This document shows, in pieces, positions 8,837 to 48,756 of a stretch of 64,000 nucleotides of DNA (the stretch's first letter is position 1; every line of letters starts with the position of its first letter). A model generated the notes under the pieces. It ran no database searches, had not been told where the DNA came from, and worked only from the letters and a program-made list of their open reading frames with translations. Position numbers and translations under genes: made by a program. The stretch is from a virus (lineage: Duplodnaviria; Heunggongvirae; Uroviricota; Caudoviricetes), in the IMG/VR virus record IMGVR_UViG_3300025012_000032. One strand, given 5' to 3'.

Positions 8837-9025
8837 ATAAAATCATCAAATGGTTACGCAAAATGTCCTCAATGTGGTAAGAAATTTGAAATGGGATTCA
8901 ATAATTATTGGATGTCATCTGCTTTTTGAGAATATTCATTCGATCATACATGTGAAGATTGTGGATGTAATTTTAAAATGACCGTAAAAAAGCAAATTTT
9001 GTTTAATACAAAAATAATAAAATAA
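8831..9025 (+). pseudogene. Disrupted zinc-ribbon gene. The frame encodes ...YAKCPQCGKKF...AF*EYSFDHTCEDCGCNF..., with an in-frame TGA at 8927-8929 and no canonical start or RBS.
   Basis: A CxxCG...CxxCG architecture like the intact small zinc-ribbon genes at 6079 and 19610 is visible only when reading through the TGA. Confidence 0.35.
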
Positions 9026-9040
9026 GAAAGGAGTTATATT

Positions 9041-9220
9041 ATGTATGAAATAAATATCGTAGATAATAAAAGTGTAGAACTATATCACGTTTTAAAATTT
9101 TGTAAAGAAGGGAATTGTGCAAATTGCGAACGTGATCCTAAAGGTTCGGATAATTATTGGTGTAAGAAACAATTGTTGCAAGAATGTTTTGATTGGTTTG
9201 ATAAATATTTGCAAGAATAA
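9041..9220 (+). CDS. Small Cys-rich protein (59 aa, CKEGNCANCE...)
   Basis: GAAAGGAG RBS followed by ATG. The ORF is below the track cutoff. Confidence 0.4.
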   Translation: MYEINIVDNKSVELYHVLKFCKEGNCANCERDPKGSDNYWCKKQLLQECFDWFDKYLQE

Positions 9221-9266
9221 TAGTTCGAAATTGTGATATTATGGGAGTAATAAGGAGGATTTAATA

Positions 9267-9572
9267 ATGTTAAAATTTGTTAGTAAAATGTCTGAAGAAC
9301 AGATTAAAGATTACTTTATTACTAAATTATCTAAAGGAGAATATATAGCTCGTTTAGATAAAGGGGAAGACTATTATCGACTTTCGTATGATAATAAATA
9401 TTCAGATTATTGGAGTCATATAGACCATTTATATGATGACAGAATATCACATGATGCTATTTTCAATAAAGATTGGATGTTATATCTATATTCCATATTT
9501 GGAGAAGAATATAAACAATGGTATCAAAATAAACTGGATGAACAATTTGATTATATATTTTATTCTAAGTGA
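9267..9572 (+). CDS. Hypothetical protein
   Basis: AAGGAGGA RBS. Confidence 0.5.
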   Translation: MLKFVSKMSEEQIKDYFITKLSKGEYIARLDKGEDYYRLSYDNKYSDYWSHIDHLYDDRISHDAIFNKDWMLYLYSIFGEEYKQWYQNKLDEQFDYIFYSK

Positions 9573-9582
9573 AAGGAGAAAA

Positions 9583-9792
9583 ATGAAAGATTTTGAAGAA
9601 ATAAGATATGAAGGATATTATGGTAGTTTTGGATATTATAAAACACATAAATTAACTAATAATCAAACAATTATAATATGCTTCAATAAATATGAATTTA
9701 GTAAGTGTAAAGAATACTCAATATTTTTAGCAATTGCAAATAAGAAAAAACATATTCGACAATTTTTATCAGAAGAAAGAGATGTACAATAG
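9583..9792 (+). CDS. Hypothetical small protein
   Basis: GAAAGGAGAAAA RBS followed by ATG at 9583. The track ORF starting at 9433 overlaps the upstream gene in another frame. Confidence 0.45.
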   Translation: MKDFEEIRYEGYYGSFGYYKTHKLTNNQTIIICFNKYEFSKCKEYSIFLAIANKKKHIRQFLSEERDVQ

Positions 9793-9815
9793 GTAAGGAA
9801 ACTGGTAAATGCGGC

Positions 9816-10013
9816 TTGGAAGGTTTAATATGGGCTAAAAATCAGATTATTGAATTTGAGAATTCTGATTTCTGTAAAAATGGAGATTATATTCGCATAG
9901 GATGGAACGATAATAGGCGTAGAAATGTTTATGAGTATGGATTGAGAAAACTAGGATTTATTATGGGATTTAGGGATGGTGGTAAATGTTTATATAAGAA
10001 GATAGAAAAGTAA
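9816..10013 (+). CDS. Hypothetical small protein
   Basis: ORF from the track. Confidence 0.4.
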   Translation: MEGLIWAKNQIIEFENSDFCKNGDYIRIGWNDNRRRNVYEYGLRKLGFIMGFRDGGKCLYKKIEK

Positions 10014-10050
10014 TTATCTGAGTAAATTATAAAGTATAAAATAAAATTAT

Positions 10051-10080
10051 TTGACAAAGACTTCATTTGTATGGTATATT
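10051..10080 (+). promoter_or_regulatory. Sigma-A-type promoter: TTGACA, 18-nt spacer, TGgTATATT (extended -10)
   Basis: Consensus -35, a TG-extended -10, upstream of the ligase gene. Confidence 0.55.
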
Positions 10081-10134
10081 ATGTACAGGAGCAAATGAGG
10101 TATAAATTTTTATTAGAAAGAAGGAGAGATTTTG

Positions 10135-11460
10135 ATGGAAAAAGTATTGGAAATCGTAGAACAACTTCAAGGGACTAGTGGTAGGAATGATAAAGAGGGA
10201 ATCATTCGAGAAAATAAAGACAACCAATTACTTAAAGATATTTTTAAATTTGTCTATAGTATTGAAATTAAAACAGGGATCAAACGCAAGAAACTTGAGA
10301 AGAAAGTAAAATCTAAATCAACTGCTAAAATTACAGATTTCTATAGTCTTAGAGATTTCCTTGTTGAAAATGGGACTGGTTCAGATGAAACAATTGCAAA
10401 TATACAACAATTTTTATCTGAGCAAAATGATAGATTAAAAGAATTATACACTCAAATTATTCTTCAAGATTTAAGGGGTGGTCTTAGTGAAAAAACTATT
10501 AATAGTGCTTTAGGATATGAATTTATCTACATACACAAATTAGAAAAAGGTGAAGTGGCAGAACCAAGACATTTAAAACTGCTTAAAGGGAAAGAATTTG
10601 GTATATATAAAAAGGTTGATGGTTATCGAGCAGAAATTGAAGTTGGTAATGGTAAAGTAAAAATCATGTCATCGGGTGGGGAGTTATTTAAAGAATTAGT
10701 GGACATAGAAACTGTTTTGTTGAGTTCAAATTTGCCTCATGGAGTATTTGCTTGCGAGTTGCTTGCAATTGATTCTGAGGGTACTATGACAAGAATGGAG
10801 GTGTTTAATAAGACTGGTTCACTATTACGAAGAGATGGTATTAAACAAGGAATTGAGGTTAACGTATTTAATTTCATTCCAGATAATGGATTTTATGAAG
10901 GAAAACATTCTACAACTTGCAGAGAAAGAAAAGCATTGGCAAAAGAATTGGTTGATAAGATTAATTCTCCTTTGATTAAAAATGTTGATCCGTTTTATAT
11001 TGGTAAAGATTTAACTCAAATTGATTATTGGTTTGAAAAAATGATTGAGCAAGAAGATGAAGGAATTATGGTTCTTCCAATGGATCAGAAATATAATGGT
11101 AAAAAGTCATATCAACAAATGCTAAAAATTAAAACTGAAAATGAAGCAGATTTACGCATAGTTGGGTTTGAGCGTGGAGAGAAAGGTAAGGCATTTGAAA
11201 ATACTTTAGGCAAAATGCTTGTTAATTACAAAGGAAATACAATTAATGTTATGGCAGGATATAAGATTAAATATGATTCTGTAAAGTATGATGATAGGTT
11301 GGTAAGGGATTATATTTGGAATCATCAAGACGAATTGTTGGGCAAGATTGTGAAAGTGCGTTACATGGATGAAACCACAAATGATAGTGGTGGAATTGAT
11401 TTAAGAATGTGTAGATTGATTGAATATAGGGACGATAAAACAGAAGAGTCTTATAATTAA
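10135..11460 (+). CDS. ATP-dependent DNA ligase
   Basis: Nucleotidyltransferase motif I KKVDGYR (KxDGxR). Motif IV-like EGIMV. Motif V-like LKIK. The length and layout are as in phage ATP-dependent ligases. Confidence 0.7.
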   Translation: MEKVLEIVEQLQGTSGRNDKEGIIRENKDNQLLKDIFKFVYSIEIKTGIKRKKLEKKVKSKSTAKITDFYSLRDFLVENGTGSDETIANIQQFLSEQNDRLKELYTQIILQDLRGGLSEKTINSALGYEFIYIHKLEKGEVAEPRHLKLLKGKEFGIYKKVDGYRAEIEVGNGKVKIMSSGGELFKELVDIETVLLSSNLPHGVFACELLAIDSEGTMTRMEVFNKTGSLLRRDGIKQGIEVNVFNFIPDNGFYEGKHSTTCRERKALAKELVDKINSPLIKNVDPFYIGKDLTQIDYWFEKMIEQEDEGIMVLPMDQKYNGKKSYQQMLKIKTENEADLRIVGFERGEKGKAFENTLGKMLVNYKGNTINVMAGYKIKYDSVKYDDRLVRDYIWNHQDELLGKIVKVRYMDETTNDSGGIDLRMCRLIEYRDDKTEESYN

Positions 11461-11625
11461 TTAAGATAAGAAAGGAATGATTATGTATTATTTACGGAAA
11501 AGGAATATATAAAATAGTTAATCAAGTAAATGATAAAATGTATATTGGAATATGATATTTTAAGAGTAGTTTGAGAAGATAAATGACCAATTTTATTCGG
11601 TAAAAAAGAAAGAAGGATTATATAA

Positions 11626-12564
11626 ATGAAAATAAAATTATTCAGTCACAGCGACCTCGACGGAGTTGGTTGTGGGATTATAGGTAAATTAGCATTTCCA
11701 CAAATTGATATTGAATATTGCGATTATGATAATGTAAATGAGAAAATCAAGCGATACATAGAAACAGAGAGATACAAAAATTATGACACAACCTTTATTA
11801 CAGATATTTCAGTAAATGAAGAAGTGGCAAAATTAATTGACAATGTTTATACTACATCAAATGAGTTTGTTTTATTAGACCATCATAAAACTGCATTATG
11901 GTTAAATGAGCATAAATGGGCATGGGTAGCAGAATATTTAGATGAAGAAGACAATACAAAACAATGCGGAACAATGATGTTTTATCTTAATATTCTTGAT
12001 TATTATATCCCAGAACACCATACCCGACATGTCATCTTGGTAAATGCATATAGTTTTGTTGAAATAGTTAGGCAATATGACACTTGGGAATGGAAAACAA
12101 AATACAATAATATTATTCCAAAACAAGTAAATGATTTGATGGGTCTATTAGGTAGAGAAACTTTTATTGAGAATGCCGTGAATCAATTTACAATGTTGCG
12201 TGAATTTGAAATTACCGAACAAGATTTAACTCTATTAAAGAGAAATCAAGAAAAAATTGATAGTTATATTGAATCAAAAAACGAATCAATTATTATAAAA
12301 GAGATCCAAGGGTATCAGGCTGGAGTGGTTTTTGCAGAAAGATATTCTTCTGAATTGGGGAATAAATTATCTGAATCACATCCTGAATTAGATTTTATTG
12401 CAATTATTAATCCATCTTTTTCGGTTAGTTATAGAACAGTGAAGAAAGGTATTGACTTAGGTTTGATTGCGAAAGTCTATGGTGGTGGAGGCCATCCTCA
12501 AGCTTCAGGAAGTCCAATAGATGAAAATATGAGAAATAGGATTATTGACTTGTTGTTTCAATAA
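11626..12564 (+). CDS. DHH/DHHA1-family phosphoesterase (NrnA-like nanoRNase/pAp phosphatase fold)
   Basis: HSDLDGVGCGIIG matches DHH motif I. LLDHHKT is the DHH motif. GGGGHPQASGS is the DHHA1 GGGH signature. Confidence 0.8.
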   Translation: MKIKLFSHSDLDGVGCGIIGKLAFPQIDIEYCDYDNVNEKIKRYIETERYKNYDTTFITDISVNEEVAKLIDNVYTTSNEFVLLDHHKTALWLNEHKWAWVAEYLDEEDNTKQCGTMMFYLNILDYYIPEHHTRHVILVNAYSFVEIVRQYDTWEWKTKYNNIIPKQVNDLMGLLGRETFIENAVNQFTMLREFEITEQDLTLLKRNQEKIDSYIESKNESIIIKEIQGYQAGVVFAERYSSELGNKLSESHPELDFIAIINPSFSVSYRTVKKGIDLGLIAKVYGGGGHPQASGSPIDENMRNRIIDLLFQ

Positions 12565-12662
12565 AGTGAAATCTGCAAAGTGGCCTATATCAACACTTTA
12601 CGGATATGCTAAATGGCATCAAATTTAACTTTTAATTGTTTTAAGAAAGGAATTGATTTAAT

Positions 12663-13079
12663 TTGAGTAACGTAGAAGATATTAAAGAAAGAATATGTAG
12701 TGCATTAGATTTACTTAATAGAGAGACAGCATTGCAAATAATTAGCGAGATATTAGATGATTATAGTTTGTATACTGCTAGTAAAATTGTTAAAAGTGAT
12801 AAAGATGTTGATTTGAATAAATTATTATTTGAAGAAAGTTTTTATTCAGAGGGCAATGAAGAAGCAGGTTTTATTAAATTAACAACACTTCTTAATGCTG
12901 TTGAAGAAGTAGTAAATTGTGACGATTACATAGATGGGGATATTACATTTGAATATTTTGTTAGGCCAGAAACAGACGAAGAAAATGAAGAGAATGGTCA
13001 TCCAACAGGGGTAGAATGGTGGACTCAGAATGAAAATGTAAATATAAATGATTTATATATTCAGTTTAAAGGGAATTAA
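12663..13079 (+). CDS. Highly acidic hypothetical protein
   Basis: TTG start behind AAGAAAGGAA. Asp/Glu-rich composition (PETDEENEENGHP). Confidence 0.45.
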   Translation: MSNVEDIKERICSALDLLNRETALQIISEILDDYSLYTASKIVKSDKDVDLNKLLFEESFYSEGNEEAGFIKLTTLLNAVEEVVNCDDYIDGDITFEYFVRPETDEENEENGHPTGVEWWTQNENVNINDLYIQFKGN

Positions 13080-13114
13080 TTTCCCAGAAAATTATGGTTT
13101 GAAAGGATGAAATT

Positions 13115-13381
13115 ATGGATTATTCACAAATGATAATAAAAACAACTGAAGATTTTTCCTCTTTTAAAAATATAAATATAATTGGTGTTGATGTATTCGG
13201 GAATGAAGAGATTAAAGATGTTTTAAGACAATGTACTTATAATAAATTTGATGATATGTTAGAATTTGAAATATTAAGTTTGTATGCAAAGCAAAATTAT
13301 GAATTAAAATATAAAGAATATATGTACGATAGTCAAAATCGTATTAAAACTTTTAAATATCACTTATATAAATTACTTTGA
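13115..13381 (+). CDS. Hypothetical small protein
   Basis: GAAAGGATGAAA RBS followed by ATG. Confidence 0.45.
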   Translation: MDYSQMIIKTTEDFSSFKNINIIGVDVFGNEEIKDVLRQCTYNKFDDMLEFEILSLYAKQNYELKYKEYMYDSQNRIKTFKYHLYKLL

Positions 13382-13413
13382 AAAGAACATTTGGTTGGAA
13401 AGGAGATTAAAAT

Positions 13414-13656
13414 ATGTGGTGTAGATATAGATTTAGAACAAAGTCAGTTGAAGATTATAGACCTTTAGTATTTAATCCGAAATACCCTTGGTGGTGTTCT
13501 GGTTATGGCGATGAATGTGCAATTATTGTTGCTTATCTACCAACAACAGAACCTCTTTATGCTTATTGGGATGACGCTTATGATATTGATATGGAAGTGG
13601 TTAGTAAAATTGAATTCTCAAGTCGTTTTCAGAAACCAGATTATTTTGAGGAATAA
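13414..13656 (+). CDS. Hypothetical small protein
   Basis: GGAAAGGAGA RBS followed by ATG. Confidence 0.45.
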   Translation: MWCRYRFRTKSVEDYRPLVFNPKYPWWCSGYGDECAIIVAYLPTTEPLYAYWDDAYDIDMEVVSKIEFSSRFQKPDYFEE

Positions 13657-13675
13657 ATTAGAGGAAGTGTATAAA

Positions 13676-14032
13676 ATGATATTAAAATCAGGTGATTGTT
13701 TTCAAGGAGAAGTTGGTAAACCAAGTGGATTAACAGATGTTGATGGTAACGAATTGTTTATAGGAGACGTTGTATTAGTTTTAAATCTTGATGATTATGA
13801 TATATCACATAATCGCATTACATATCAAGGTGGCCTTAACTTTGTGTGTCAAAATAATAAAGATTGTGGTTATGATGAAGATATGTTTGTTATGGGAATT
13901 AAAGATTTATATCAAAATCATGATGGTGAAATCACTCAAGATGAAGAATGGAAAGTGTTTAAAGTAAAATCTTATAAACAAGTAGTTAATGGTGAGATAT
14001 GGGGAGTTGTAAGAGCAGTAGACGAAAAGTAA
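13676..14032 (+). CDS. Hypothetical protein (118 aa)
   Basis: AGAGGAAG RBS followed by ATG at 13676. The 5' part of track ORF 13505..14032 overlaps the previous gene out of frame. Confidence 0.5.
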   Translation: MILKSGDCFQGEVGKPSGLTDVDGNELFIGDVVLVLNLDDYDISHNRITYQGGLNFVCQNNKDCGYDEDMFVMGIKDLYQNHDGEITQDEEWKVFKVKSYKQVVNGEIWGVVRAVDEK

Positions 14033-14053
14033 AACCCTTGCTACAAAGGGGTT
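14032..14053 (+). terminator. Terminator-like hairpin AAACCCTT-GCTACAA-AGGGGTTT
   Basis: Short GC stem with T's immediately after the stop codon. Confidence 0.45.
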
Positions 14054-14113
14054 TCAGAGGACGATAATTGACATGAAATTGCATTTTGATGGGTACTGGA
14101 GGTGAGATATATA

Positions 14114-14293
14114 ATGAAAGATAAACTCATGATTGAGTTAACTAAAGAGGAAATGAATGTTGTTAAGAACGGTATGTTATTAATTTTATCCCTCTCAAAA
14201 AGAGGGCAACTTGATTTAAAAAACAATGCGAAAGATTTATATGAAGATGTATATAATAAATTTGATTTACTATATGAAAATAAATGGCGTTAA
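14114..14293 (+). CDS. Hypothetical small protein
   Basis: GGAGGTGAGA RBS followed by ATG at 14114. Confidence 0.4.
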   Translation: MKDKLMIELTKEEMNVVKNGMLLILSLSKRGQLDLKNNAKDLYEDVYNKFDLLYENKWR

Positions 14294-14314
14294 GTTAAAG
14301 GAGGGAAATAATAA

Positions 14315-15376
14315 TTGAACACCACAATATTTTTACCTAAAACTATTAAAGTTGGTTATCAAAAACGTTCTGATACATATACAGGTCAACTAGCTTATGT
14401 GATCTACTATGATCAAAAAGGGAAATTAAGAAAGGAGACATCTTGGAATAGTTGGAGAGATGATAAAATTGAACCACAAGAATATTCCAATGAACCAACT
14501 TCAGGGTTTGTATTAAATAAAAAGGTTGGAGACTACGTTTCAGATTGGAATCATCGACAAGCATATGTAAGAGTTTATGATCCTCGTAACTTTGAATTTG
14601 AAATCACTATAGAAAACTTACTTTACATACTTGAAAATGCTAGTTCAATCAAAGGAAAGGGATTAGAAGGTGATTTTGTTTATGGTTGGGATGGGAAAGA
14701 TTTAATTTTAATACCTGTAGAATCACCTGACTATAAAGAATTAAGTGATCTGAACAATTTAAGACACGAGAGAAAGAAATTTGATGGAAAGAATTTAATT
14801 TTAGGTGGTACATATAAATCTAATTCCAATAATGAATTAATTTATTTGGGTAGATTTTATGAAAATAATGACGATGGCAAAGAAACAAAAACTTATTTCT
14901 TTTATAATAGAAACGTAAGTTGGAATAAAATTGTATCTATAAAATCTTTATCAGGGAATATAATTGATATTATAGATGAAATTTGTGTAGAAGATTACGC
15001 TGATTTGATGGATGAATTATTAAAAGATAGTAAATATTCTGCTAGAGAACCTAAATATGATACTTATTTGGATTACACATTGGAAGAATTTAAAGCAAAT
15101 TTAAAAGAAAATGCTTATTGGAGACATAAATATTTTACTCAAATAGACAACAAATATGTAAAATATCAAATCAAAAGATACAGTGACTATAGTTGGCATT
15201 ATAATTATAATAAAGATCAAAAAAATTATACTTATGATGTTTATACTACGAATAAAAGACGTAGAGATGAGAAAATAATGGGGTCTGCTTCTCCAGAGCA
15301 AATATTCAATAAACTAAATCCAAAATACCTAGTAACATATAATCAAAATAAAGAATTAATTAAGGAGTGGAAATAA
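14315..15376 (+). CDS. Hypothetical protein (353 aa)
   Basis: AAAGGAGGGAAA RBS with a TTG start. Confidence 0.55.
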   Translation: MNTTIFLPKTIKVGYQKRSDTYTGQLAYVIYYDQKGKLRKETSWNSWRDDKIEPQEYSNEPTSGFVLNKKVGDYVSDWNHRQAYVRVYDPRNFEFEITIENLLYILENASSIKGKGLEGDFVYGWDGKDLILIPVESPDYKELSDLNNLRHERKKFDGKNLILGGTYKSNSNNELIYLGRFYENNDDGKETKTYFFYNRNVSWNKIVSIKSLSGNIIDIIDEICVEDYADLMDELLKDSKYSAREPKYDTYLDYTLEEFKANLKENAYWRHKYFTQIDNKYVKYQIKRYSDYSWHYNYNKDQKNYTYDVYTTNKRRRDEKIMGSASPEQIFNKLNPKYLVTYNQNKELIKEWK

Positions 15377-15378
15377 AA

Positions 15379-15783
15379 ATGGCAAATGAAACAAACGATT
15401 CAAAAATTATGGAATTAAAGAAACAAATTGAAGAAAAGAAAGCAAAGTTAATCAAATCTCAAAAGTTTTCACCTATTACAAATAGTTCAATTGAATTAGA
15501 TGGGGTAAGAACTAATATCCAAGTTCTTAATAAAGAACAATTAACTTATCTATTAGTTAAACTTAATTCATATGCAATATCTGCTAAAGAATTAGAAATT
15601 GATTTTGTTATCTCTGGTTATCATATTGTAGATTGGATTGCAGATATTAAATCTAAACTTGATTTTGTGAGTCGCAAAGAAGAAGAAAATAAACTAAAGG
15701 TTATGGAATCTAAATTACATCAATTACTTTCTAATGAAAAGAAAGTTGAACTTGAAATTGATGAAATTATGAAGAATTTGTAA
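15379..15783 (+). CDS. Hypothetical coiled-coil protein
   Basis: TAAGGAGTGG RBS followed by ATG at 15379. Confidence 0.5.
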   Translation: MANETNDSKIMELKKQIEEKKAKLIKSQKFSPITNSSIELDGVRTNIQVLNKEQLTYLLVKLNSYAISAKELEIDFVISGYHIVDWIADIKSKLDFVSRKEEENKLKVMESKLHQLLSNEKKVELEIDEIMKNL

Positions 15784-15793
15784 TTAGAATAAA

Positions 15794-15817
15794 GGGAGGG
15801 TGTTAAATAATCCTCCC
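15794..15817 (+). terminator. Hairpin GGGAGG-loop-CCTCCC after the stop codon. There is no U-tract, so it is only a weak terminator candidate.
   Basis: Inverted repeat read from the sequence. Confidence 0.3.
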
Positions 15818-15857
15818 AGAAAAGATACACTCTGTCTTATGAAAGGAGAAATATAAA

Positions 15858-15998
15858 ATGAACGATCCAAACGATTTTCAATGTGATATTTGTGGCAATA
15901 CATTAACTTCAGAATCTTGTTTTTGTGATAAATGTAAATCATGGTTATGTAATGGTTGTGCATTTGAAGATGAATGTGAAGAAAAACAGGGTAAATAA
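15858..15998 (+). CDS. Small Cys-rich zinc-ribbon peptide (46 aa, CDICG...CDKCK...CNGC)
   Basis: GAAAGGAGAAA RBS followed by ATG. Confidence 0.4.
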   Translation: MNDPNDFQCDICGNTLTSESCFCDKCKSWLCNGCAFEDECEEKQGK

Positions 15999-16147
15999 TA
16001 TTTGAGAAAGGAAAAATTATGAATTGGTGTAAAAGTCCAAGGAAATAAATCTTGATTTTCTACATAGAAAAGGGGTATAATAAACACTAAATAAAGAAAT
16101 AATATATCTTATCAACAAACTTCAAGAGAAGGGAGATAAGATATATT

Positions 16148-16381
16148 ATGACAACCATTCCAACGTCAAACGGTTATATTAAGTCATTTTTTGTTCTTGG
16201 AAATGAGTCAGGTAAAGCGTTTATCAATCATCATAGTAGTAAAGTTTTAATTTCAGATCCAATGAAGTCAAGAATGTTTGATTCTTATAAGGATGCATTG
16301 GATTTTAATGTACAATTTAAAAATAATTATTCTGAAAAATTATTTGTATATCAGATTAGAGTTACAGTAGAATTGGTTTAG
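16148..16381 (+). CDS. Hypothetical small protein
   Basis: GAAGGGAGA RBS. Confidence 0.45.
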   Translation: MTTIPTSNGYIKSFFVLGNESGKAFINHHSSKVLISDPMKSRMFDSYKDALDFNVQFKNNYSEKLFVYQIRVTVELV

Positions 16382-16398
16382 ATTTTTAATTTTAGTTG

Positions 16399-16449
16399 AG
16401 GTGTAATATATAGAGTTAAAAATAAAATGTATTACACCTTTATTTTTAG
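16399..16449 (+). terminator. Intrinsic terminator (stem AGGTGTAATA/TATTACACCT followed by TTTATTTTT)
   Basis: 10-bp stem plus a T-tract. Confidence 0.6.
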
Positions 16450-16511
16450 AAATAATTTAAAGACTATATTTGATGCTATATTGAATTGAATAAAATAGAC
16501 AGGAGGAAATC

Positions 16512-17663
16512 ATGTTAACTTCATGTAAAGAAAATCAATATCTTGTATTTTATCTTGATGATGGGAAAAATGTTAAATATAATTTATCAACAGGCGAAAC
16601 TATTGGAAAACTTGGAAAACCAGTAAAAGATATTCGCACACAACTTAGAGGAAATGATTTACTACAAGTTATCAATTCATTTCAGGATAAAAATTATAGT
16701 AATTTCTTAAATTTTCTGGATAGAAATTTTATCAATAAATCACATTCGGAAAAATATCATTACGGCAGCAGGGTAGATCGCATTACAAATATAGGTAGTT
16801 TCTTATCTAAAATTGAGAATTATAAATATCTTGAACAATATTTTGCATGTGGGTTGAAAAAACTTGATCCTAAAATTAGATACAAATTAACTGAAATTCC
16901 AAAAAACCTAATTAAATTATGTAAAACGCATGATATTGAATTAAATAACGATTTAATAGATTCCTATAAATTAAGTCCAGATTTATTTTCTAACTTATTA
17001 AATTATGAATTTACAACTATAAACAAAATGAACATTCAAGATATATTGTATTCAAATGAATATGGTAAAAACAAATTCGATCAATTAATAAAGACACATA
17101 ATTACAAACCAACATCGTTATTACAATACATAGATAATTTAATGACATTCGAGGCTTTAGATAACTTCCATTCAGTGGTTGGTGAGTTATTGGATTATTG
17201 CAACATGATGAGCAAAATAAGTCCAAAATATGAAAAGTATCCAAAGAATTTTTTAACAACTCATAAGATTGCCACAAGAAATTATACTCGTTTAATACAA
17301 AAGTTCGTAGAAGAAGATTTTAAAAAAGTTATTGATCTAAAATTAGAGCATACATATGATAAGTTTAAAATTGTTTATCCTAAAACTACACAAGATATTA
17401 AAGACGAGGCAGTACAGCAAAATCATTGTGTAGCAAGTTATATACAAAATGTCATTGATGGTAAAACGCATATTTTATTCTTAAGGGATAAAAAAAATAT
17501 TGAAAGGAGTTTAATTACATTAGAAATTAAAAATTATAAAGTGGTTCAGGCCAGAGGAAAATTTAATAGAGACGTAACCAAAGAGGAACAAGGTGTTATT
17601 AATAAGTACAATGAAAAATTAAATAAAATTTATAATAAAAGAAAAGAGGAAATAGCATGTTAA
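16512..17663 (+). CDS. Hypothetical protein, possibly PcfJ-like
   Basis: GACAGGAGGAAA RBS. The C-terminal segment QQNHCVASYIQNV...VVQARGKFN is reminiscent of the PcfJ-like family. That call is made from memory and not verified. Confidence 0.5.
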   Translation: MLTSCKENQYLVFYLDDGKNVKYNLSTGETIGKLGKPVKDIRTQLRGNDLLQVINSFQDKNYSNFLNFLDRNFINKSHSEKYHYGSRVDRITNIGSFLSKIENYKYLEQYFACGLKKLDPKIRYKLTEIPKNLIKLCKTHDIELNNDLIDSYKLSPDLFSNLLNYEFTTINKMNIQDILYSNEYGKNKFDQLIKTHNYKPTSLLQYIDNLMTFEALDNFHSVVGELLDYCNMMSKISPKYEKYPKNFLTTHKIATRNYTRLIQKFVEEDFKKVIDLKLEHTYDKFKIVYPKTTQDIKDEAVQQNHCVASYIQNVIDGKTHILFLRDKKNIERSLITLEIKNYKVVQARGKFNRDVTKEEQGVINKYNEKLNKIYNKRKEEIAC

Positions 17664-18097
17664 AAAATATTAATAAAATTGAAGTAGGTATGAGGGTAAA
17701 ACAAATTAAGGAGTTACCACGATTTAATTATATCGGTACAGAATTTGAGGTAACTGAAATTGTAGATTCAGTTGTAATGTGTAAAAATGGAATGATGGGA
17801 TTTGGTTTATCTGAAAATGATTTCTTTGCATATTTTGAATCTGTTAAATCTGTCGCCAAACAAGAAATTGAGTTTATGACGATTGAAATTGTCGATGGTA
17901 TCAAGACTACTAGAAAAGGATTATTAACTCTTGTAGAGCTTCCTGATGGATCTCAGGGTGCGTCTAAACCATTGCCTCAAGATAAATATGATGCTCAAAG
18001 AGGATACGATATTGCATTTCTAAAAGCAGATATTAGAGCTGATGAAAAAGTAATTAAGATGAAGAAAAGAAAATTAGAAGAGTTAAGAAAGTTTTAA
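17657..18097 (+). CDS. Hypothetical protein
   Basis: AGAGGAAA RBS. The start overlaps the upstream gene's stop. Confidence 0.5.
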   Translation: MLKNINKIEVGMRVKQIKELPRFNYIGTEFEVTEIVDSVVMCKNGMMGFGLSENDFFAYFESVKSVAKQEIEFMTIEIVDGIKTTRKGLLTLVELPDGSQGASKPLPQDKYDAQRGYDIAFLKADIRADEKVIKMKKRKLEELRKF

Positions 18098-18109
18098 GTA
18101 AAATATAGT

Positions 18110-18159
18110 ATTGTGCTTTCTAGAAAACGTTGATATAAGCCACTTTTAGAAAGCACAAT
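18110..18159 (+). terminator. Long hairpin (stem of about 16 bp, ATTGTGCTTTCTAGAAAA...TTTTAGAAAGCACAAT)
   Basis: Inverted repeat after the stop codon, with no classical U-tract. Confidence 0.4.
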
Positions 18160-18204
18160 ATAAGATAAAACGAATCTTTCATAGGTTAGAAAGGAGTTTA
18201 TTTT

Positions 18205-41735: not shown

Positions 41736-43538
41736 ATCAAATATCGAGTCTTAAACAAAGGATATGACTTAATTAGTGAGAATGAATTATTGGATATTTT
41801 ATTGAAAAATAGAGGTGTGGAAAATCCAAAAGAAATGTTAAATGTAAGCGAATCTTTCTTACATGATGGAATGTTATTTAAAAACATGAATAGAGGATTA
41901 GATATGCTTCATTGGCACATTGAAAATAATAGTAAAATACATATTATAATTGATGTGGACGTTGATGGCACTACATCAGGTACGATAATTAATAATTATA
42001 TTTTGAATATTAATCCAAATATCATAATCACACATTCTATGAACGAAAAGAAAATGCATGGAATTGTAGTGAAAAGTCTTGAAGAATATGAATTTAACTT
42101 ATTGATTGTTCCTGACGCTGGTTCGTCAGATGTTAAACAATGTAAAGAACTAGTAGAAACAAGAGACATAGACATTCTAATTCTTGATCATCACGAAATA
42201 GAAGAAATCAATCCTTATGCTGTAGTTATTAATTGCCAAGATGGTCAATATCCCAATACTACATTATCTGGTGCAGGAGTAGTTTATAAATTTATTAAAG
42301 AATATGATAAAAAGTATAGATTTAATTTTGCTGAAAACAATTTAGATTTAGTAGCAATAGGTATGATAGCAGACTCTATGGATTTGAGAAATTATGAAAC
42401 AAGATACTTAGCTATAGAAGGTTTAAAAACAATAAATAATGAATTTATGAAACAATTCTTAGTAAAAAATAAAATAGAAGATAATAAAAGCGTTGATTTT
42501 AAATTTATCGGATGGAAGATTGCTCCTTTTGTTAATGCAGTTACAAGAATAGGCAATGCTGAAGAAAGAAAAGATTTAATAAATGCATTCTTAGGCAAAG
42601 AAGAGAAAAAAGAATATCAACCAAGAAGAAAATGTAAGACAGATCCTAAACCAGAAATTATAATACAAACATTACAAGAGTGTATGATTCGAGAAACCAC
42701 TAATATTAAAGCAAGACAGGATAAGTTAGTTAAAAAATCAATGGAAGATATAGCAGAAATAATTGAAACACAAAAATTGAATGATAATAAAGTAATTATT
42801 GTAAATGCTACGAATGTATTAGAAAAGTCTTTTTCAGGATTGGTTGCTAATAAATTAGCAAGTATTTATAAACGTCCAATAATTATTTTGAAACAAATGA
42901 AAAAAGATGAATTAAAAAATGAGGAAGAAGAAACAGTATTCGGAGGAAGTTTTAGAAGTTATGATTTATTCCCTGTAGTATCTTTCATGGATGTCTTAAG
43001 AGAAGTCGATACTTTTATCAAGTTAGGAGGTCATCCTAATGCTGGAGGACATCAAATTAAAGAGAGTAAAATTCAAGAGACACAAGATAAATTAAATGAA
43101 ATGTTTAAAGATGTAGATATTGAAGACGTTTATATGGTGGATTATGAAATCCCTATTGGCAGATTAAAGGAGAAGCATATTCTTCAAGTAGGTCAATGGG
43201 CAGATATTTGGGGGAACACATTAAAAGAACCAATTTTTTGTATTACAGATGTAAATTTAAAGATAGAAGATATTCAATTGCTAGGAGAAAAGAGAAATAT
43301 TATCAAATTCGAGAAAATAATAGGTAGCAATAAAATTGTATTTATAAAAATGTTCGCAGGAGAGGCATTGTATAATAAGATGATTATGAAAAATCATACT
43401 GGATTATCTAAAAAGAATAATAAAGTTAAGTTAGACATCATTGGAAAGTTTACATTGAATAAACGGAATGGAAACGAATTCCCTCAAATTGAGATTATTG
43501 ATTTTAACGTTAGTAAGGAAAAAGATTTTAAGTTTTAA
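41736..43538 (+). CDS. RecJ-like single-strand DNA exonuclease (DHH/DHHA1)
   Basis: IIIDVDVDGTTSG is DHH motif I. ILDHHE is the DHH motif. GGHPNAGGH is DHHA1. The track start is TTG at 41790. The conserved RecJ N-terminus (ENELLDILLKNRGV) extends upstream of it, so the 5' end given here (ATC at 41736 behind AAAGGAG) is tentative. Confidence 0.7.
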   Translation: MKYRVLNKGYDLISENELLDILLKNRGVENPKEMLNVSESFLHDGMLFKNMNRGLDMLHWHIENNSKIHIIIDVDVDGTTSGTIINNYILNINPNIIITHSMNEKKMHGIVVKSLEEYEFNLLIVPDAGSSDVKQCKELVETRDIDILILDHHEIEEINPYAVVINCQDGQYPNTTLSGAGVVYKFIKEYDKKYRFNFAENNLDLVAIGMIADSMDLRNYETRYLAIEGLKTINNEFMKQFLVKNKIEDNKSVDFKFIGWKIAPFVNAVTRIGNAEERKDLINAFLGKEEKKEYQPRRKCKTDPKPEIIIQTLQECMIRETTNIKARQDKLVKKSMEDIAEIIETQKLNDNKVIIVNATNVLEKSFSGLVANKLASIYKRPIIILKQMKKDELKNEEEETVFGGSFRSYDLFPVVSFMDVLREVDTFIKLGGHPNAGGHQIKESKIQETQDKLNEMFKDVDIEDVYMVDYEIPIGRLKEKHILQVGQWADIWGNTLKEPIFCITDVNLKIEDIQLLGEKRNIIKFEKIIGSNKIVFIKMFAGEALYNKMIMKNHTGLSKKNNKVKLDIIGKFTLNKRNGNEFPQIEIIDFNVSKEKDFKF

Positions 43539-43593: not shown

Positions 43594-46500
43594 TTGACAA
43601 TATTAGATGAAGATTTTGTACATCTACACACGCATCACGAGCACAGTAATTTACGCTTTCGTGATTCGGTTAATAAGATTAAAGATATGATTCTTCATGT
43701 TGATGGATTAGGAAATCGATCTATGGCACTCACGGATCATGACGCACTTTCTGGACACATAAAATTCCTTAATACAGTCAAAGAGTTAAAATCTAAAGAT
43801 AAAATACATAAAGATTTTAAACCAATTCTAGGAAATGAAATATATTTAGTTGATGAAGAGATAATGTATGAAGAAATGAAGGATCAAAATAAAAAACCTA
43901 AGTTCTACCATTTTCTAATTTTAGCCAAGGATAATGAAGGTCATGAGCAAATGAGAAAGTTATCTACTAGAGCATGGACGAGATTATTCAGTTATAAAGG
44001 TGTTGAAAGAGTTCCTACATTCTATAGTGATATAGAATCCATTGTAAGCAAAAATAAAGGGCATTTGATAGCATCAAGTGCCTGTCTTGGAGGAATGTTG
44101 CCACATTTGATTTTGAGTCTGTTACAAGAAGAAAATGAAGAGATTCAAGAACAAATAAAAGATGAATTAGATGATTTTTTAAATTGGTGTCTTGATTTAT
44201 TTGGAGAAGATTTTTATATTGAATTGCAACCCTCTCTACAACAAGAGCAGATAGATTTTAATAGAATGGCAGTAAGAATAGCAAAGGCATATAATATAAA
44301 ATGGATAGTGACAACCGATGCACATTATTTAACAGCAAAAGATAGAGAAATTCATAAGGCATTCTTAACCTCAGAAGATGATTTAAACAACAATCGTGAA
44401 GTAGATATGTTTTATAGCACAACTCATTTCTTCACCGTAGATGAGATATTTAAGAATATGGATTATTTAGAAACTGAGGATATTGAAAAAGCAATATTAA
44501 ACACTAAAGAAGTTGCTGATAAAGTTGTAGGATATGATTTTTTTGCAAAATCTATTATTCCCTTAAGGGAATTACCTAAAAAATCAGAGTGGTATCCAGT
44601 TAATCAAAAAATATTAAGTAAGTATCCATATATAAAAGAACTTTATGAAGATATTGAGAGTCAGCATACTTTCTTGATTACTCAAACATTTAAAGGAATA
44701 GAAGAAAGAGGAATCAAAAAAGAAAAATTAGACGATATATTAGAAAGAGTTAATATTGAATGTAAAGAAATCACAGGAGCAAGCAAAGCAAAACATCAGC
44801 CAATGGGAGCATACCTAAATACCATGCAAAAAAATGTAGATATTATCTGGGAAGAAGCCGAATCATTTGTTGGGCCTGGAAGGGGATCTGCTAATGGATA
44901 TATTATAAATTATTTATTGGGCATTACTCAAGTAAATCCATTAGAACAAGGTGTAGAAATGCCTCATTGGAGATTCATGTCGGCAGAAAGACCAGATATT
45001 TTTGACATCGATATAGATTATAGTTCTCATAAAAAAGATGTAGTAATGGATAAAATAGTGAAGTATTATCAAAGTATCGGTGGAGATGCGATAAGAGTAT
45101 GCACCTTTGGAACAGAAACATCTAAATCAGCTATTCAAACAGCTTGCAGAGGATTACATATCAACAATGACGTTGCATTATATCTAAGTTCTTTAGTGCC
45201 TATAGAAAGAGGAAAAGTGTGGAGCATTCATGATTGTTTCTATGGAGATCCAGACAATGGAAGAAAAGCAGTAACCGAATTTAGAAATATGGTAAGCGAG
45301 TATACGGATAAAAATTTATTAAACGTTATTCTAGGAATTGAAGGATTAATTAATAAAAGGTCTACCCACGCTTGTTTTGATAAAGAGTCGCTAGTCTCAA
45401 CATCGGAAGGACTAAAAAGGATTATAGATATAAAAATTGGAGATAAGGTGTTAACACATAAACGCAGATTCAAACCTGTAATAGATTTAATTAAAACAAC
45501 AGCAGGCTCAATGTATACTCTAAAAACAAAATCTTCATTTCCTATAGAGGTCACAGAAGATCATCCTTTTTATGTAAGAGAAAGAAGCGATACCGAAGGT
45601 GGAAAAATATTTAGTAAACCAAAATGGAAGCAGGTATATGAACTATCAATTGGCAAGGACTATGTAGGGATTCCTATTAATAACGAATCCATTATTCCTG
45701 AAAATGATTTAACCTCTCTACCTTTTAATTGTAAAGATTTTTGGTGGATTATAGGAAGATATATTGGAGATGGATGGACAGAAAACTACACTCGTGAGAA
45801 AAAAATAAAAAATAGAAAAACAAATAAATGGGTTGAAAGAAGAATCATTATTTGTTGTTCAAAAGTTAATGAGAATGAAGTGCAAGAAATAACACAATAT
45901 TTGGATAATTTAAATTTCAAATATCGAGTTGAGGAAGTTAAAACAACTTATAAAGTTCATATACAAAACAAAGAACTCTATTCTTATCTTCAAGGATTTG
46001 GGAGATATGCATATGGCAAATATATTAATCAAGACGTATTTAATTTACCAAGAGATTATGTTGCAGTATTTTTAGAAGGTTATATAAGTGCAGACGGACA
46101 CCTTCGAACAGAAAATAATACGTATACCATAAAAACAATTAGTAAAAAATTAGCTATTGGAACAATGCAACTAATTAATAAAGCATTTCATAGATATGCT
46201 ACTATTGGTATATTACCTCCAAAAACTGAGTATATCGAGGATAGAGAGGTCGAATCAAAAGAAAAATATGAAATTAAGTTTACTAAAGATACTAGAAAGA
46301 AAGAGAAAAGTTTCTATGAAGATGGTTATATTTGGACACGACTATCTTATTTAAAAAGAAAAATGGAACCTAAAACAATGTATAATTTGACTGTTTTAGA
46401 CGACAATTCATATGTTGTACATGGTTTAGGTGTTCACAATTGCGGTGTAATTATTCTGAATGAACCAATCACAAAGCATAATTCAGTAATGAGAAGCCCA

Positions 46501-48738: not shown

Positions 48739-48756
48739 ATTAAAGGAGTGATACAT

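Follow-up and report, generated by a model that had tools for sequence, protein, structure and literature searches.

Gene and predicted structure

We analysed a 64,000-nucleotide window of DNA from a tailed virus of the Caudoviricetes (IMG/VR record IMGVR_UViG_3300025012_000032). On the plus strand, positions 11626..12564 hold an open reading frame with an ATG start that encodes a 312-amino-acid short-form DHH/DHHA1 phosphoesterase, which we place in the NrnB family. Reading the sequence directly, a Shine–Dalgarno-like AAGGA (11613..11617, plus strand) lies 8 nt 5′ of the ATG.

Conservation among homologues marks the active site, all on the plus strand: DHH motif I, HSDLDG (11647..11664), in which H8, D10 and D12 are predicted metal ligands; motif II, ITDIS (11797..11811; D60); motif III, D85-H86-H87 (11878..11886); and, in DHHA1, SYRT with the invariant R270 (12427..12438). 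Alignment adds motif IV, YDTW (12076..12087; D152), which lies in the NrnB-typical block RQYDTWEW that is also found in Bacillus subtilis NrnB, and, by alignment with that same protein, the DHHA1 motif GGGGH (12481..12495), followed by PQASG. Across 40 homologues, H8, D10, D12, D60, D85, H86, H87, D152, R270, G287, G289 and H290 are invariant.

The AlphaFold2 model (mean pLDDT of 95.5) consists of two lobes and a helical linker only, with motif I already at residue 8; its secondary structure delimits a DHH core (residues ~1–112), a helical linker or insert (~115–220) and DHHA1 (~221–312). Because both Pfam scores fall under the gathering thresholds (DHH, 23.0 versus 28.1; DHHA1, 24.1 versus 25.9), Pfam by itself would miss this protein. 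With the full set of DHH and DHHA1 motifs in an open reading frame of the length described, the first-pass annotation of a stand-alone, catalytically intact 312-amino-acid DHH/DHHA1 enzyme holds.

Gene neighbourhood in the window

The gene immediately upstream (10132..11460, plus strand), which the first-pass annotation had called a DNA ligase, is a genuine ATP-dependent DNA ligase according to its matches to Pfam (DNA_ligase_A_M, E = 1.6e-10), PHROG (PHROG 114, E = 9e-66) and PDB structures (6rau/6rar and 6dt1). A strong promoter-like site with TG (10051..10080; 11/12 matches) precedes the ligase gene, and the scan found no terminator-like site between the ligase and DHH genes, although it returned no more promoter and terminator sites than in shuffled sequence. 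The two genes may be co-transcribed.

The replication module contains a separate RecJ-like DHH exonuclease (41736..43538, plus strand; first start codon at 41790) with DHH, DHHA1 and RecJ_OB domains (PHROG 2484, E = 2e-139; TIGR00644, 274 bits). This second locus confirms the earlier statement that the gene studied here is distinct from the replication exonuclease; besides RecJ, the window has no second DHH paralogue. A Pfam scan of ten further neighbouring open reading frames matched DUF6527 and DUF4230 only.

Assignment to the NrnB family

We used the NrnB family definition of Myers et al. (2023/2025), in which NrnB is set apart biochemically from NrnA by 3′–5′ polarity on linear RNA. By sequence, the 312-amino-acid protein belongs to the NrnB (COG2404) family. 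It resembles B. subtilis NrnB (P0371) over its full length (BLASTP, 39% identity, E = 2e-58, residues 5–298 against 4–291), and it has both DHH and GGGH (G287-G288-G289-H290). Its homologues bear the JGI name for COG2404, ‘oligoribonuclease NrnB/cAMP/cGMP phosphodiesterase’. The phage-type clade and the NrnB-A clade are identical at 47 positions that are at least 90% conserved; every metal-binding motif is among them, as are RQYDTWEW and SELGN. PHROG profiles 26954 and 4771, both ‘DHH phosphoesterase’, match the protein with E values of 9e-30 and 4e-26. Sequence similarity within the family is far above chance level: an exhaustive HMMER search recovered 2,912 cluster representatives (50% identity) at E ≤ 1e-3, of which 631 were at E ≤ 1e-30.

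The ‘NrnA-like’ label of the first-pass annotation fails, by contrast, on the NrnA equivalog of NCBIfam (NF053633): the score is 15.8 bits, where 350 are required, and the alignment covers residues 262–301 only. Matches to NrnA chains in the PDB are likewise confined to the surroundings of GGGH (E = 0.2–0.3). No NrnB-specific NCBIfam model matched the protein, so NCBIfam is unusable for NrnB membership. The closest PDB structure is 6mtz from Helicobacter pylori, which we take to be H. pylori NrnB (sequence E = 1.4e-5; Foldseek E = 9e-15; 17–19% identity); structures of the NrnA/GdpP/CnpB branch match the model with Foldseek E values of 1e-8 to 1e-6. Two further identities were rejected. RecJ_OB is absent and archaeal RecJ models score 28–31 bits against cut-offs of 360–550; the transmembrane, PAS and degenerate GGDEF segments that precede DHH/DHHA1 in GdpP are also missing, motif I starting at residue 8.

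The protein shares the superfamily fold and the metal-binding motifs with the branch formed by NrnA, GdpP, CnpB (Rv2837c) and Pde2, but sequence similarity to that branch is not meaningful outside GGGH. NrnA acts 5′–3′ and the branch hydrolyses pAp and c-di-AMP, whereas neither activity was seen in the NrnBs that have been assayed. Because the pAp and c-di-AMP activities invoked in the first-pass annotation belong to the NrnA/GdpP/CnpB branch, the corrected family bears on the proposed function. Placement in the NrnB branch yields a concrete prediction, namely a 3′–5′ exonuclease on 2–4-mers that would lack c-di-AMP activity.

Comparison with known NrnB types

[quoted passage not shown] For B. 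subtilis NrnB, cleavage of a DNA 5-mer is roughly as rapid as that of RNA, and longer DNA is a poor substrate.

All catalytic motifs of B. subtilis NrnB (YngD, an NrnB-A) are identical in the phage protein, and the two have RQYDTWEW and SELGN in common; the same mode of action, metal-dependent 3′–5′ exonucleolysis of linear oligonucleotides, would be expected. They differ in that B. subtilis NrnB is a chromosomal gene expressed during sporulation and carries a basic C-terminal extension of ~110 residues (PF26386) that is needed for the degradation of long RNA. NrnB-A is recognized by this conserved basic extension (PF26386), which runs for over 100 residues beyond DHHA1, and by lysine at position 285, and the phage protein has neither. 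Its tail after GGGH is just 22 residues long (NrnB-A median, 116), so the extension is absent; PF26386 does not match the protein, and Q292 aligns with K285 of B. subtilis NrnB, a position described as a clade marker (PMC12709177). NrnBs without the extension tend to prefer short RNAs (PMC12709177).

Short-form NrnBs (clade B of H. pylori and clade C of B. thuringiensis; Myers et al. 2025) resemble the phage protein in length (~310–350 amino acids) and in having a tail of less than 50 residues. Those that have been assayed prefer RNAs of 2–4 nt and do not cut c-di-AMP (PMC12709177). H. pylori NrnB has asparagine at the K285 position, where the phage protein has glutamine. Clade C is delimited by Bacillota origin, a compact fold and a tail of less than 50 amino acids; in the published tree, its members group with B. 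thuringiensis NrnB. The phage protein, a candidate for this clade, has the short tail and relatives from Bacillota only and, compared with clade C by description, fits both its Bacillota distribution and its variable residue at the K285 position. In our neighbour-joining tree, the phage-type clade adjoins NrnB-A.

Distribution and genomic context of relatives

The family is large, and enzymes of this type are common in large phages of Gram-positive hosts. Members occur commonly in phages of 90–200 kb, on large non-mobilizable plasmids, which are possibly phage-plasmids, and in some prophage-like regions of Bacillota. Full-length matches occur in 21 phage records (26–47% identity), all of them large Bacillota phages. 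Phage copies of the same family and architecture include AR9 g157, PBS1 gp45, AR1086-1 nrnB and the genes of Nachito and LysYB1 (PHROG 26954/4771); the records of AR9 and AR1086-1 already use the name NrnB. Cultured-phage copies are at most 47% identical to the protein studied here, which comes from a groundwater metagenome phage, and we did not find near-identical DNA among cultured phages. The nearest viral structure model is that of AR9 NrnB (TM 0.75–0.79). Literature searches found no experimental characterization of these phage enzymes. Ten longer homologues, including one of 819 amino acids, were checked for fused domains and show DHH/DHHA1 only.

We reject recent capture from a host: identity to the nearest relatives from genomes is no more than ~51%, and some, at least, of the genome matches lie in prophage-like regions or on large plasmids. 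Five cellular lineages of Bacilli carry an orthologue in a housekeeping-looking arrangement, RNase HII–NrnB-like–MBL hydrolase.

The segment that holds the gene is recombination-variable: an otherwise 99.7%-identical relative carries a DHH allele of 57% identity together with a second paralogue. Such a pattern is seen more typically in genes for host interaction than in those of core metabolism. In phages, both cultured and uncultured, the neighbours are enzymes that act on nucleic acids or nucleotides: DNA ligase, RtcB, CCA-adding enzyme, NUDIX, triphosphate tunnel metalloenzyme, DnaQ-like exonuclease, topoisomerase II and Sak4. No conserved partner gene was found over 59 lineages, and Pfam domains of 146 neighbours, pooled from 58 lineages, revealed no universal partner. 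Time and again, relatives lie directly downstream of RNA-repair genes, either RtcB or RlaP with a CCA-adding enzyme, and this is the most interesting lead.

Probable function

Family membership, an intact active site, the DHH/DHHA1 fold, the absent extension and the wide spread in large Bacillota phages are directly supported by these comparisons. The best reading of the gene is that it probably encodes a phage short-form NrnB nanoRNase that finishes the breakdown of oligonucleotides for nucleotide recycling. The nucleic-acid and nucleotide enzymes beside its relatives in phages, and the housekeeping-looking setting of the Bacilli orthologues, also speak for this reading. The first-pass annotation had listed the processing of short oligonucleotides as an alternative, and this function is plausible. 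As a member of the NrnB rather than the NrnA family, the protein most likely trims short linear fragments of RNA or DNA to mononucleotides.

We infer its polarity, its substrate-length preference and its part in recycling. As a two-domain, metal-dependent phosphoesterase (activity depends on Mn2+ in the assayed homologues), it would bind a short linear oligonucleotide between its two lobes, DHH and DHHA1, and shorten it stepwise from the 3′ end, by one nucleoside monophosphate per cut. RNAs of 2–4 nt would be preferred, as expected from the absence of the basic C-terminal extension for long RNA, and short DNA would probably be accepted as well. We hypothesize that, during infection, the enzyme completes the breakdown of host (and phage) RNA and DNA fragments left by other nucleases. 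The NMPs and dNMPs released could enter the nucleotide pool of the phage, a role that we propose because a ribonucleotide reductase gene (53630..56815) also lies in the window. The activity might also prevent the build-up of dinucleotides and oligonucleotides that are toxic or able to prime transcription.

Several observations limit the nanoRNase reading. At 39% identity to B. subtilis NrnB, the substrate could have changed, and the need of the phage for its own copy is questionable because Bacillota hosts already have NrnA and/or NrnB. The recombination-variable locus with its allele swap, and the lack of a constant partner in 59 lineages, also count against it. If the enzyme is only a nanoRNase, it illustrates how phages of Bacillota that lack Orn supply their own terminal step of RNA and DNA salvage.

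Alternative functions

The enzyme could instead be an accessory of RNA repair that trims or heals damaged 3′ ends of RNA or tRNA, which we consider rather unlikely. Its task would be to take off surplus or damaged nucleotides at the 3′ end, or a 2′,3′-cyclic phosphate or 3′-phosphate, so that tRNAs cleaved by host nucleases in the anticodon or at the acceptor end could be restored by a CCA-adding enzyme, the nucleotidyltransferase RlaP or a ligase. A 3′–5′ exonuclease is a natural partner of the CCA-adding enzyme in tRNA end turnover, as with RNase T and CCA in Escherichia coli. Gene order in relatives is consistent with such a role. In the Clostridioides phage AR1086-1, an nrnB of 47% identity lies immediately downstream of rtcB, an order also found in lineage L022. 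In a gut-phage lineage of 40 loci (L076/L077), the CCA-adding enzyme is directly upstream of the DHH gene and RlaP is 1–2 genes further upstream; L020 has the order RlaP, CCA-adding enzyme, metallophosphoesterase-like protein, DHH. At a distance of 4 genes from the DHH gene, L109 has RlaP on the downstream side and L135 has RtcB on the upstream side. RlaP, the CCA-adding enzyme and RtcB are all recognized as phage RNA-repair genes (PMC7824862).

In the window itself, however, tblastn with RtcB, RlaP, the CCA-adding enzyme and five other neighbour families from relatives found no match, a tRNA scan found no tRNA genes, and the ligase encoded upstream is of the DNA rather than the RNA type. Only about 5 of the 59 lineages (L076/L077, L020, L022, L109 and L135) have RNA-repair genes close to the DHH gene, and the RlaP–CCA cases may descend from one ancestor. 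B. subtilis NrnB has no 3′-phosphatase activity on pAp, and short-form NrnBs disfavour long RNAs, which argues against substrates the size of tRNA. A broader version, to which we give a similarly small weight, is that the phage-type short NrnB trims or heals 3′ ends as a component of phage RNA-repair modules (with RtcB, or with RlaP and the CCA-adding enzyme) that reverse host tRNA-targeting immunity, and that the copy in the window has become detached. Should the recurrent adjacency to RtcB, RlaP and the CCA-adding enzyme have a functional basis, the tRNA-repair counter-defence of phages would gain a nuclease as a new component.

A role in countering nucleotide signalling is improbable. The enzyme would hydrolyse immune signals that are cyclic dinucleotides, oligonucleotides or mononucleotides (of CBASS, Pycsar or the cOA of type III CRISPR) or host c-di-AMP, or would clear their linear products. 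The idea has been in print since 2021, when such a role was proposed for the DHH phosphodiesterases of jumbo phages (Iyer et al., PMC7824862). [quoted passage not shown] The setting of the gene amid small unknown open reading frames, in a variable segment with an allele swap and gain of a paralogue in a near-identical relative, would also suit this role.

Against it, the protein is of NrnB type, not of GdpP, CnpB or NrnA type, a placement that makes the popular anti-CBASS or anti-cOA reading less likely beforehand. The archaeal cOA degrader of Sulfolobus (MAD) shares the DHH-DHHA1 core, and we detected no specific similarity between it and the phage protein. An exonuclease that works 3′–5′ has to start from a free 3′ end, and cyclic signals have none. 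Matches in Pfam, PHROG and NCBIfam are to DHH-type models only, with no homology to Acb1, Apyc1, AcrIII-1 or defence components. Acb1 (2H), Apyc1 (MBL) and AcrIII-1 (DUF1874) have different folds. PADLOC returned nothing for the protein and nine neighbours, the 58 lineages show no recurrent defence or anti-defence neighbour, and close cellular orthologues lie in housekeeping-like contexts. The anti-defence function suggested in the first-pass annotation is thus weakened: with no c-di-AMP cleavage by the assayed NrnBs, no cleavage of cAMP or pAp by that of B. subtilis, and no defence neighbour found, it is unsupported.

A role on DNA alongside the adjacent ligase appears just as improbable. The enzyme would degrade short RNA primers, single-stranded DNA flaps or oligonucleotides arising from replication, repair or host-DNA degradation. 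Its position directly downstream of the ATP-dependent ligase with no terminator-like site between them, an order kept in 7 loci of the lineage of the window, the cleavage of a DNA 5-mer by B. subtilis NrnB, and the presence of topoisomerase II, Sak4 and gyrase B as neighbours in other phages are consistent with this. However, adjacency to the ligase is confined to the lineage of the window, and the 99.7%-identical relative has no ligase at this position; the replication module already encodes a RecJ-like exonuclease, and NrnB handles longer DNA poorly.

Finally, an exopolyphosphatase or a pAp or nucleotide phosphatase, as some phage records imply (‘exopolyphosphatase’ or ‘phosphohydrolase’, including the copies of PBS1, Bobb and Hakuna), is very improbable, and we reject the ‘exopolyphosphatase’ label: the match to PHROG 1850 (E = 2e-8, residues 137–253) is limited to the helical linker, the weak match to the fold of yeast PPX1 is remote (TM 0.25), B. 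subtilis NrnB is inactive on pAp, and the names seem to have been carried over from older annotation of the DHH superfamily. In large phages and giant viruses, stand-alone DHH/DHHA1 genes rank with the most common enzymes that lack an explanation, and their annotations clash, ranging over exopolyphosphatase, phosphohydrolase, NrnA and NrnB.

Family assignment

The gene at 11626..12564 (+) is a 312-amino-acid ORF with an ATG start and an AAGGA ribosome-binding site 8 nt 5′ of it, and the DHH/DHHA1 motifs that the first-pass annotation had described as complete are all present: HSDLDG (motif I; H8, D10 and D12), ITDIS (motif II; D60), D85-H86-H87 (motif III), YDTW (motif IV; D152) and, in DHHA1, SYRT (R270) and GGGGH (residues 286–290). 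Every motif residue is invariant in an alignment of the protein with 39 homologues (46–74% identity). An AlphaFold2 model computed from this 40-sequence alignment (mean pLDDT 95.5, pTM 0.86) predicts two lobes, DHH and DHHA1, connected by a long helical linker. The RecJ-like exonuclease gene of the replication module (41736..43538, first start codon 41790) is distinct, as had been stated; its product has DHH, DHHA1 and RecJ_OB domains and matches PHROG 2484 (E = 2e-139).

The product had been labelled NrnA-like, and this label is wrong. The NCBIfam NrnA equivalog reaches 15.8 bits where its cut-off is 350, limited to residues 262–301, and solved NrnA chains align solely around GGGH (E = 0.2–0.3). 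The top solved structure is H. pylori 6mtz, which we take to be H. pylori NrnB, both by sequence (E = 1.4e-5) and by fold (Foldseek E = 9e-15), with CnpB, RecJ, PggH and NrnA behind. B. subtilis NrnB (P0371, 399 amino acids), retrieved using a ~400-amino-acid chromosomal Bacillus homologue as query, is 39% identical over residues 5–298 (57% positives; BLASTP E = 2e-58). When 37 phage-type sequences were compared with 40 from NrnB-A, the B. subtilis-type clade, 47 positions were at least 90% conserved with the same residue in both groups; all catalytic motifs, as well as the RQYDTWEW and SELGN blocks typical of NrnB, are among them. The protein thus belongs to the NrnB family, with an intact active site.

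NrnB-A proteins differ in having a median of 116 residues after GGGH, compared with 22 in the window protein and 21–32 across the phage-type clade, and in carrying PF26386, which a Pfam search did not match in the window protein. From the similarity to B. subtilis NrnB, the common blocks and the short C terminus, we assign the protein by sequence as a short-form NrnB. Myers et al. 2025 (PMC12709177) use the K285 position as a clade marker (Lys in NrnB-A, Asn in NrnB-B, variable in NrnB-C); Gln292 of the window protein aligns to K285 of B. subtilis NrnB, and the protein appears to fit the published description of the Bacillota short NrnB-C clade.

It is a divergent addition to a known and already annotated kind: homologues in AR9, Goe21, Internexus and Clostridioides phage AR1086-1 carry an nrnB annotation, and JGI names others ‘oligoribonuclease NrnB/cAMP/cGMP phosphodiesterase’ (COG2404). 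The sub-family is nevertheless poorly captured by Pfam and NCBIfam. Both Pfam domains fall below their gathering scores in the window protein (DHH, 23.0 versus 28.1; DHHA1, 24.1 versus 25.9), no NrnB-specific NCBIfam model matched it, and many homologues have no precomputed Pfam domain. PHROGs 26954 and 4771 (‘DHH phosphoesterase’) cover it end to end (E = 9e-30 and 4e-26), and when 1.84 billion cluster representatives were searched exhaustively with HMMER, 2,912 relatives passed E ≤ 1e-3, of which 631 reached E ≤ 1e-30.

Predicted activity

[quoted passage not shown] Given its homology to NrnB, the window protein most likely removes NMPs in the 3′–5′ direction from very short linear oligonucleotides. 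We infer this polarity, the length preference and a role in recycling. During lytic infection, nucleases and RNases would produce leftover di- to pentanucleotides, which a phage nanoRNase would turn into monomers usable by phage nucleotide enzymes (the window encodes a ribonucleotide reductase, 53630..56815); it would also keep dinucleotides from building up. Literature searches found no experimental study of any phage NrnB.

Distribution and origin

An identical protein is encoded by 22 contigs, mainly from groundwater metagenomes (PRJNA268031), the longest of which is 276,924 bp; the phage is therefore large. IMG/VR holds 169 confirmed relatives, most on viral contigs of 90–200 kb. Species genomes in GTDB yielded 52 loci, almost all Bacillota, the exceptions being one Deferribacter and two Muribaculaceae MAG contigs. 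Homologues also occur on 31 PLSDB plasmids, 30 of them non-mobilizable and 120–500 kb long, from C. botulinum, C. difficile, C. tetani, B. velezensis and B. thuringiensis, and in Bacillus isolate assemblies they usually lie on 115–150 kb contigs, which suggests phage-plasmids or pseudolysogenic phages. Because homologues occupy elements of plasmid or phage size, the NrnB-C clade as published from GTDB genomes may include mobile-element-borne genes.

In a neighbour-joining tree, the short-form, mostly viral clade adjoins a monophyletic NrnB-A clade. A recent host capture, raised earlier as a question for phylogeny, is rejected, because the closest genome-derived relatives are only ~51% identical; identity to any cultured-phage copy is at most 47%. 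The same tree contains a more distant cellular clade with conserved RNase HII–DHH–MBL-hydrolase synteny. This order, seen in five lineages from uncultured Bacilli MAGs (L114, L121, L125, L127 and L133), looks like a housekeeping arrangement; the NrnB-like proteins there are 31–38% identical to the phage protein, and the small MBL-fold protein matches the Pfam model of Apyc1, an anti-Pycsar protein, weakly and below threshold (19 bits versus a cut-off of 50).

Among BFVD structures, stand-alone DHH/DHHA1 look-alikes occur in giant eukaryotic viruses (Klosneuvirus, Marseillevirus, Pithovirus, Tupanvirus and Medusavirus) and in many jumbo phages, including Gram-negative ones (PaBG, PhiEaH1 and RP12). 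This enzyme type therefore recurs across large viruses in general.

Gene neighbourhood

We called ORFs at 137 loci and clustered their proteins; the DHH genes form 59 lineages when grouped at 70% identity. Pooling Pfam matches for 146 neighbours no more than two genes away revealed no universal partner, with RNase HII in five cellular lineages, MBL hydrolase in five, PolyA_pol/CCA in two and the rest scattered. Most of the neighbours in phages are enzymes that act on nucleic acids or nucleotides. The end of a triphosphate tunnel metalloenzyme gene overlaps the DHH start in Bacillus phage Nachito (L139), a NUDIX protein lies upstream in Lysinibacillus phage LysYB1 (L140), and in AR9 (L141) the gene follows an SF2 helicase and directly precedes a DnaQ-like 3′–5′ exonuclease. 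Topoisomerase II or Sak4 follows the gene in plasmid-type lineages.

The most intriguing pattern is a repeated position straight after RtcB or a CCA-adding enzyme. RtcB is directly upstream in Clostridioides phage AR1086-1 (L138, 6703..8900) and at locus L022; a CCA-adding enzyme is directly upstream, with RlaP farther upstream, in a 40-locus gut-phage lineage (L076/L077), and both also lie upstream at L020. Short NrnBs could thus be 3′-end trimming accessories of RNA-repair modules, and CCA addition would pair logically with a 3′–5′ trimming enzyme. However, only about 5 of the 59 lineages have RNA-repair genes close to the DHH gene, short NrnBs disfavour long RNAs, and the window contains no homologue of RtcB, RlaP or the CCA-adding enzyme and no tRNA genes. 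We consider this role unlikely for the window protein; the association itself is a testable lead.

The upstream neighbour in the window (10132..11460 (+), 442 amino acids) is, as the first-pass annotation had it, a real ATP-dependent DNA ligase, with profile matches and matches to PDB 6rau/6rar and the T4 ligase N-terminal domain. A DNA-side role alongside this enzyme is improbable, as the adjacency is specific to the window lineage (7 loci).

A recombination-variable block

Contig IMGVR_UViG_3300024999_000081 (L006/L008) matches window 13088..18196 at 99.7% nucleotide identity and window 6066..7083 at 87.5%. Its DHH allele at the equivalent position is only 68% (nucleotide) and 57% (amino acid) identical; the contig has no counterparts of the ligase or of the downstream ORF (12663..13079 (+), 138 amino acids, in the same orientation as the NrnB-like gene), and a second NrnB-like paralogue (68% amino acid identity) lies between the equivalents of window 4184 and 4394. 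Because an otherwise near-identical relative has a divergent allele, missing neighbours and an extra paralogue, window ~7100..13090 is a recombination-variable block where alleles of the NrnB-like gene are exchanged and its copy number varies. Downstream of that gene, the near-identical stretch contains two conserved phage proteins of unknown function, one matching PHROG 2475 (14315..15376; E = 2.5e-107) and the other PcfJ-like (16512..17663; PHROG 9653, E = 2e-131).

This variability would suit an enzyme that degrades cyclic nucleotide immune or second-messenger signals, as had been proposed here and, by Iyer et al. 2021 (PMC7824862), for the DHH phosphodiesterases of jumbo phages. A Sulfolobus DHH-DHHA1 cA4 degrader provides a precedent, and cGAMP, cA3–6 and cCMP/cUMP have so far been outside NrnB substrate panels. 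The NrnB-type assignment weakens the proposal, however: none of the assayed NrnBs cleaves c-di-AMP (PMC12709177), and B. subtilis NrnB lacks pAp phosphatase and cAMP phosphodiesterase activities (PMC10570053). Defence-related context is also lacking, with no PADLOC model matching the window protein or nine neighbours, and we give signal degradation little credence. Exopolyphosphatase or pAp phosphatase identity is very improbable indeed, as these labels look like legacy annotation.

Other features of the window

An MrpR-like tyrosine recombinase near the window start (284..1288; PHROG 5830 ‘integrase’, E = 1e-55; Pfam MrpR_N_CB and MrpR_C_cat) hints at multimer resolution or a plasmid-like or temperate lifestyle of the element. 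An apparent intein with a LAGLIDADG homing-endonuclease domain interrupts each of three large genes of replication or nucleotide function: DNA polymerase III alpha (43594..48738; insert at about residues 590–950), a RecD2-like helicase (48748..52356; about residues 730–1130) and the ribonucleotide reductase large subunit (about residues 270–570).
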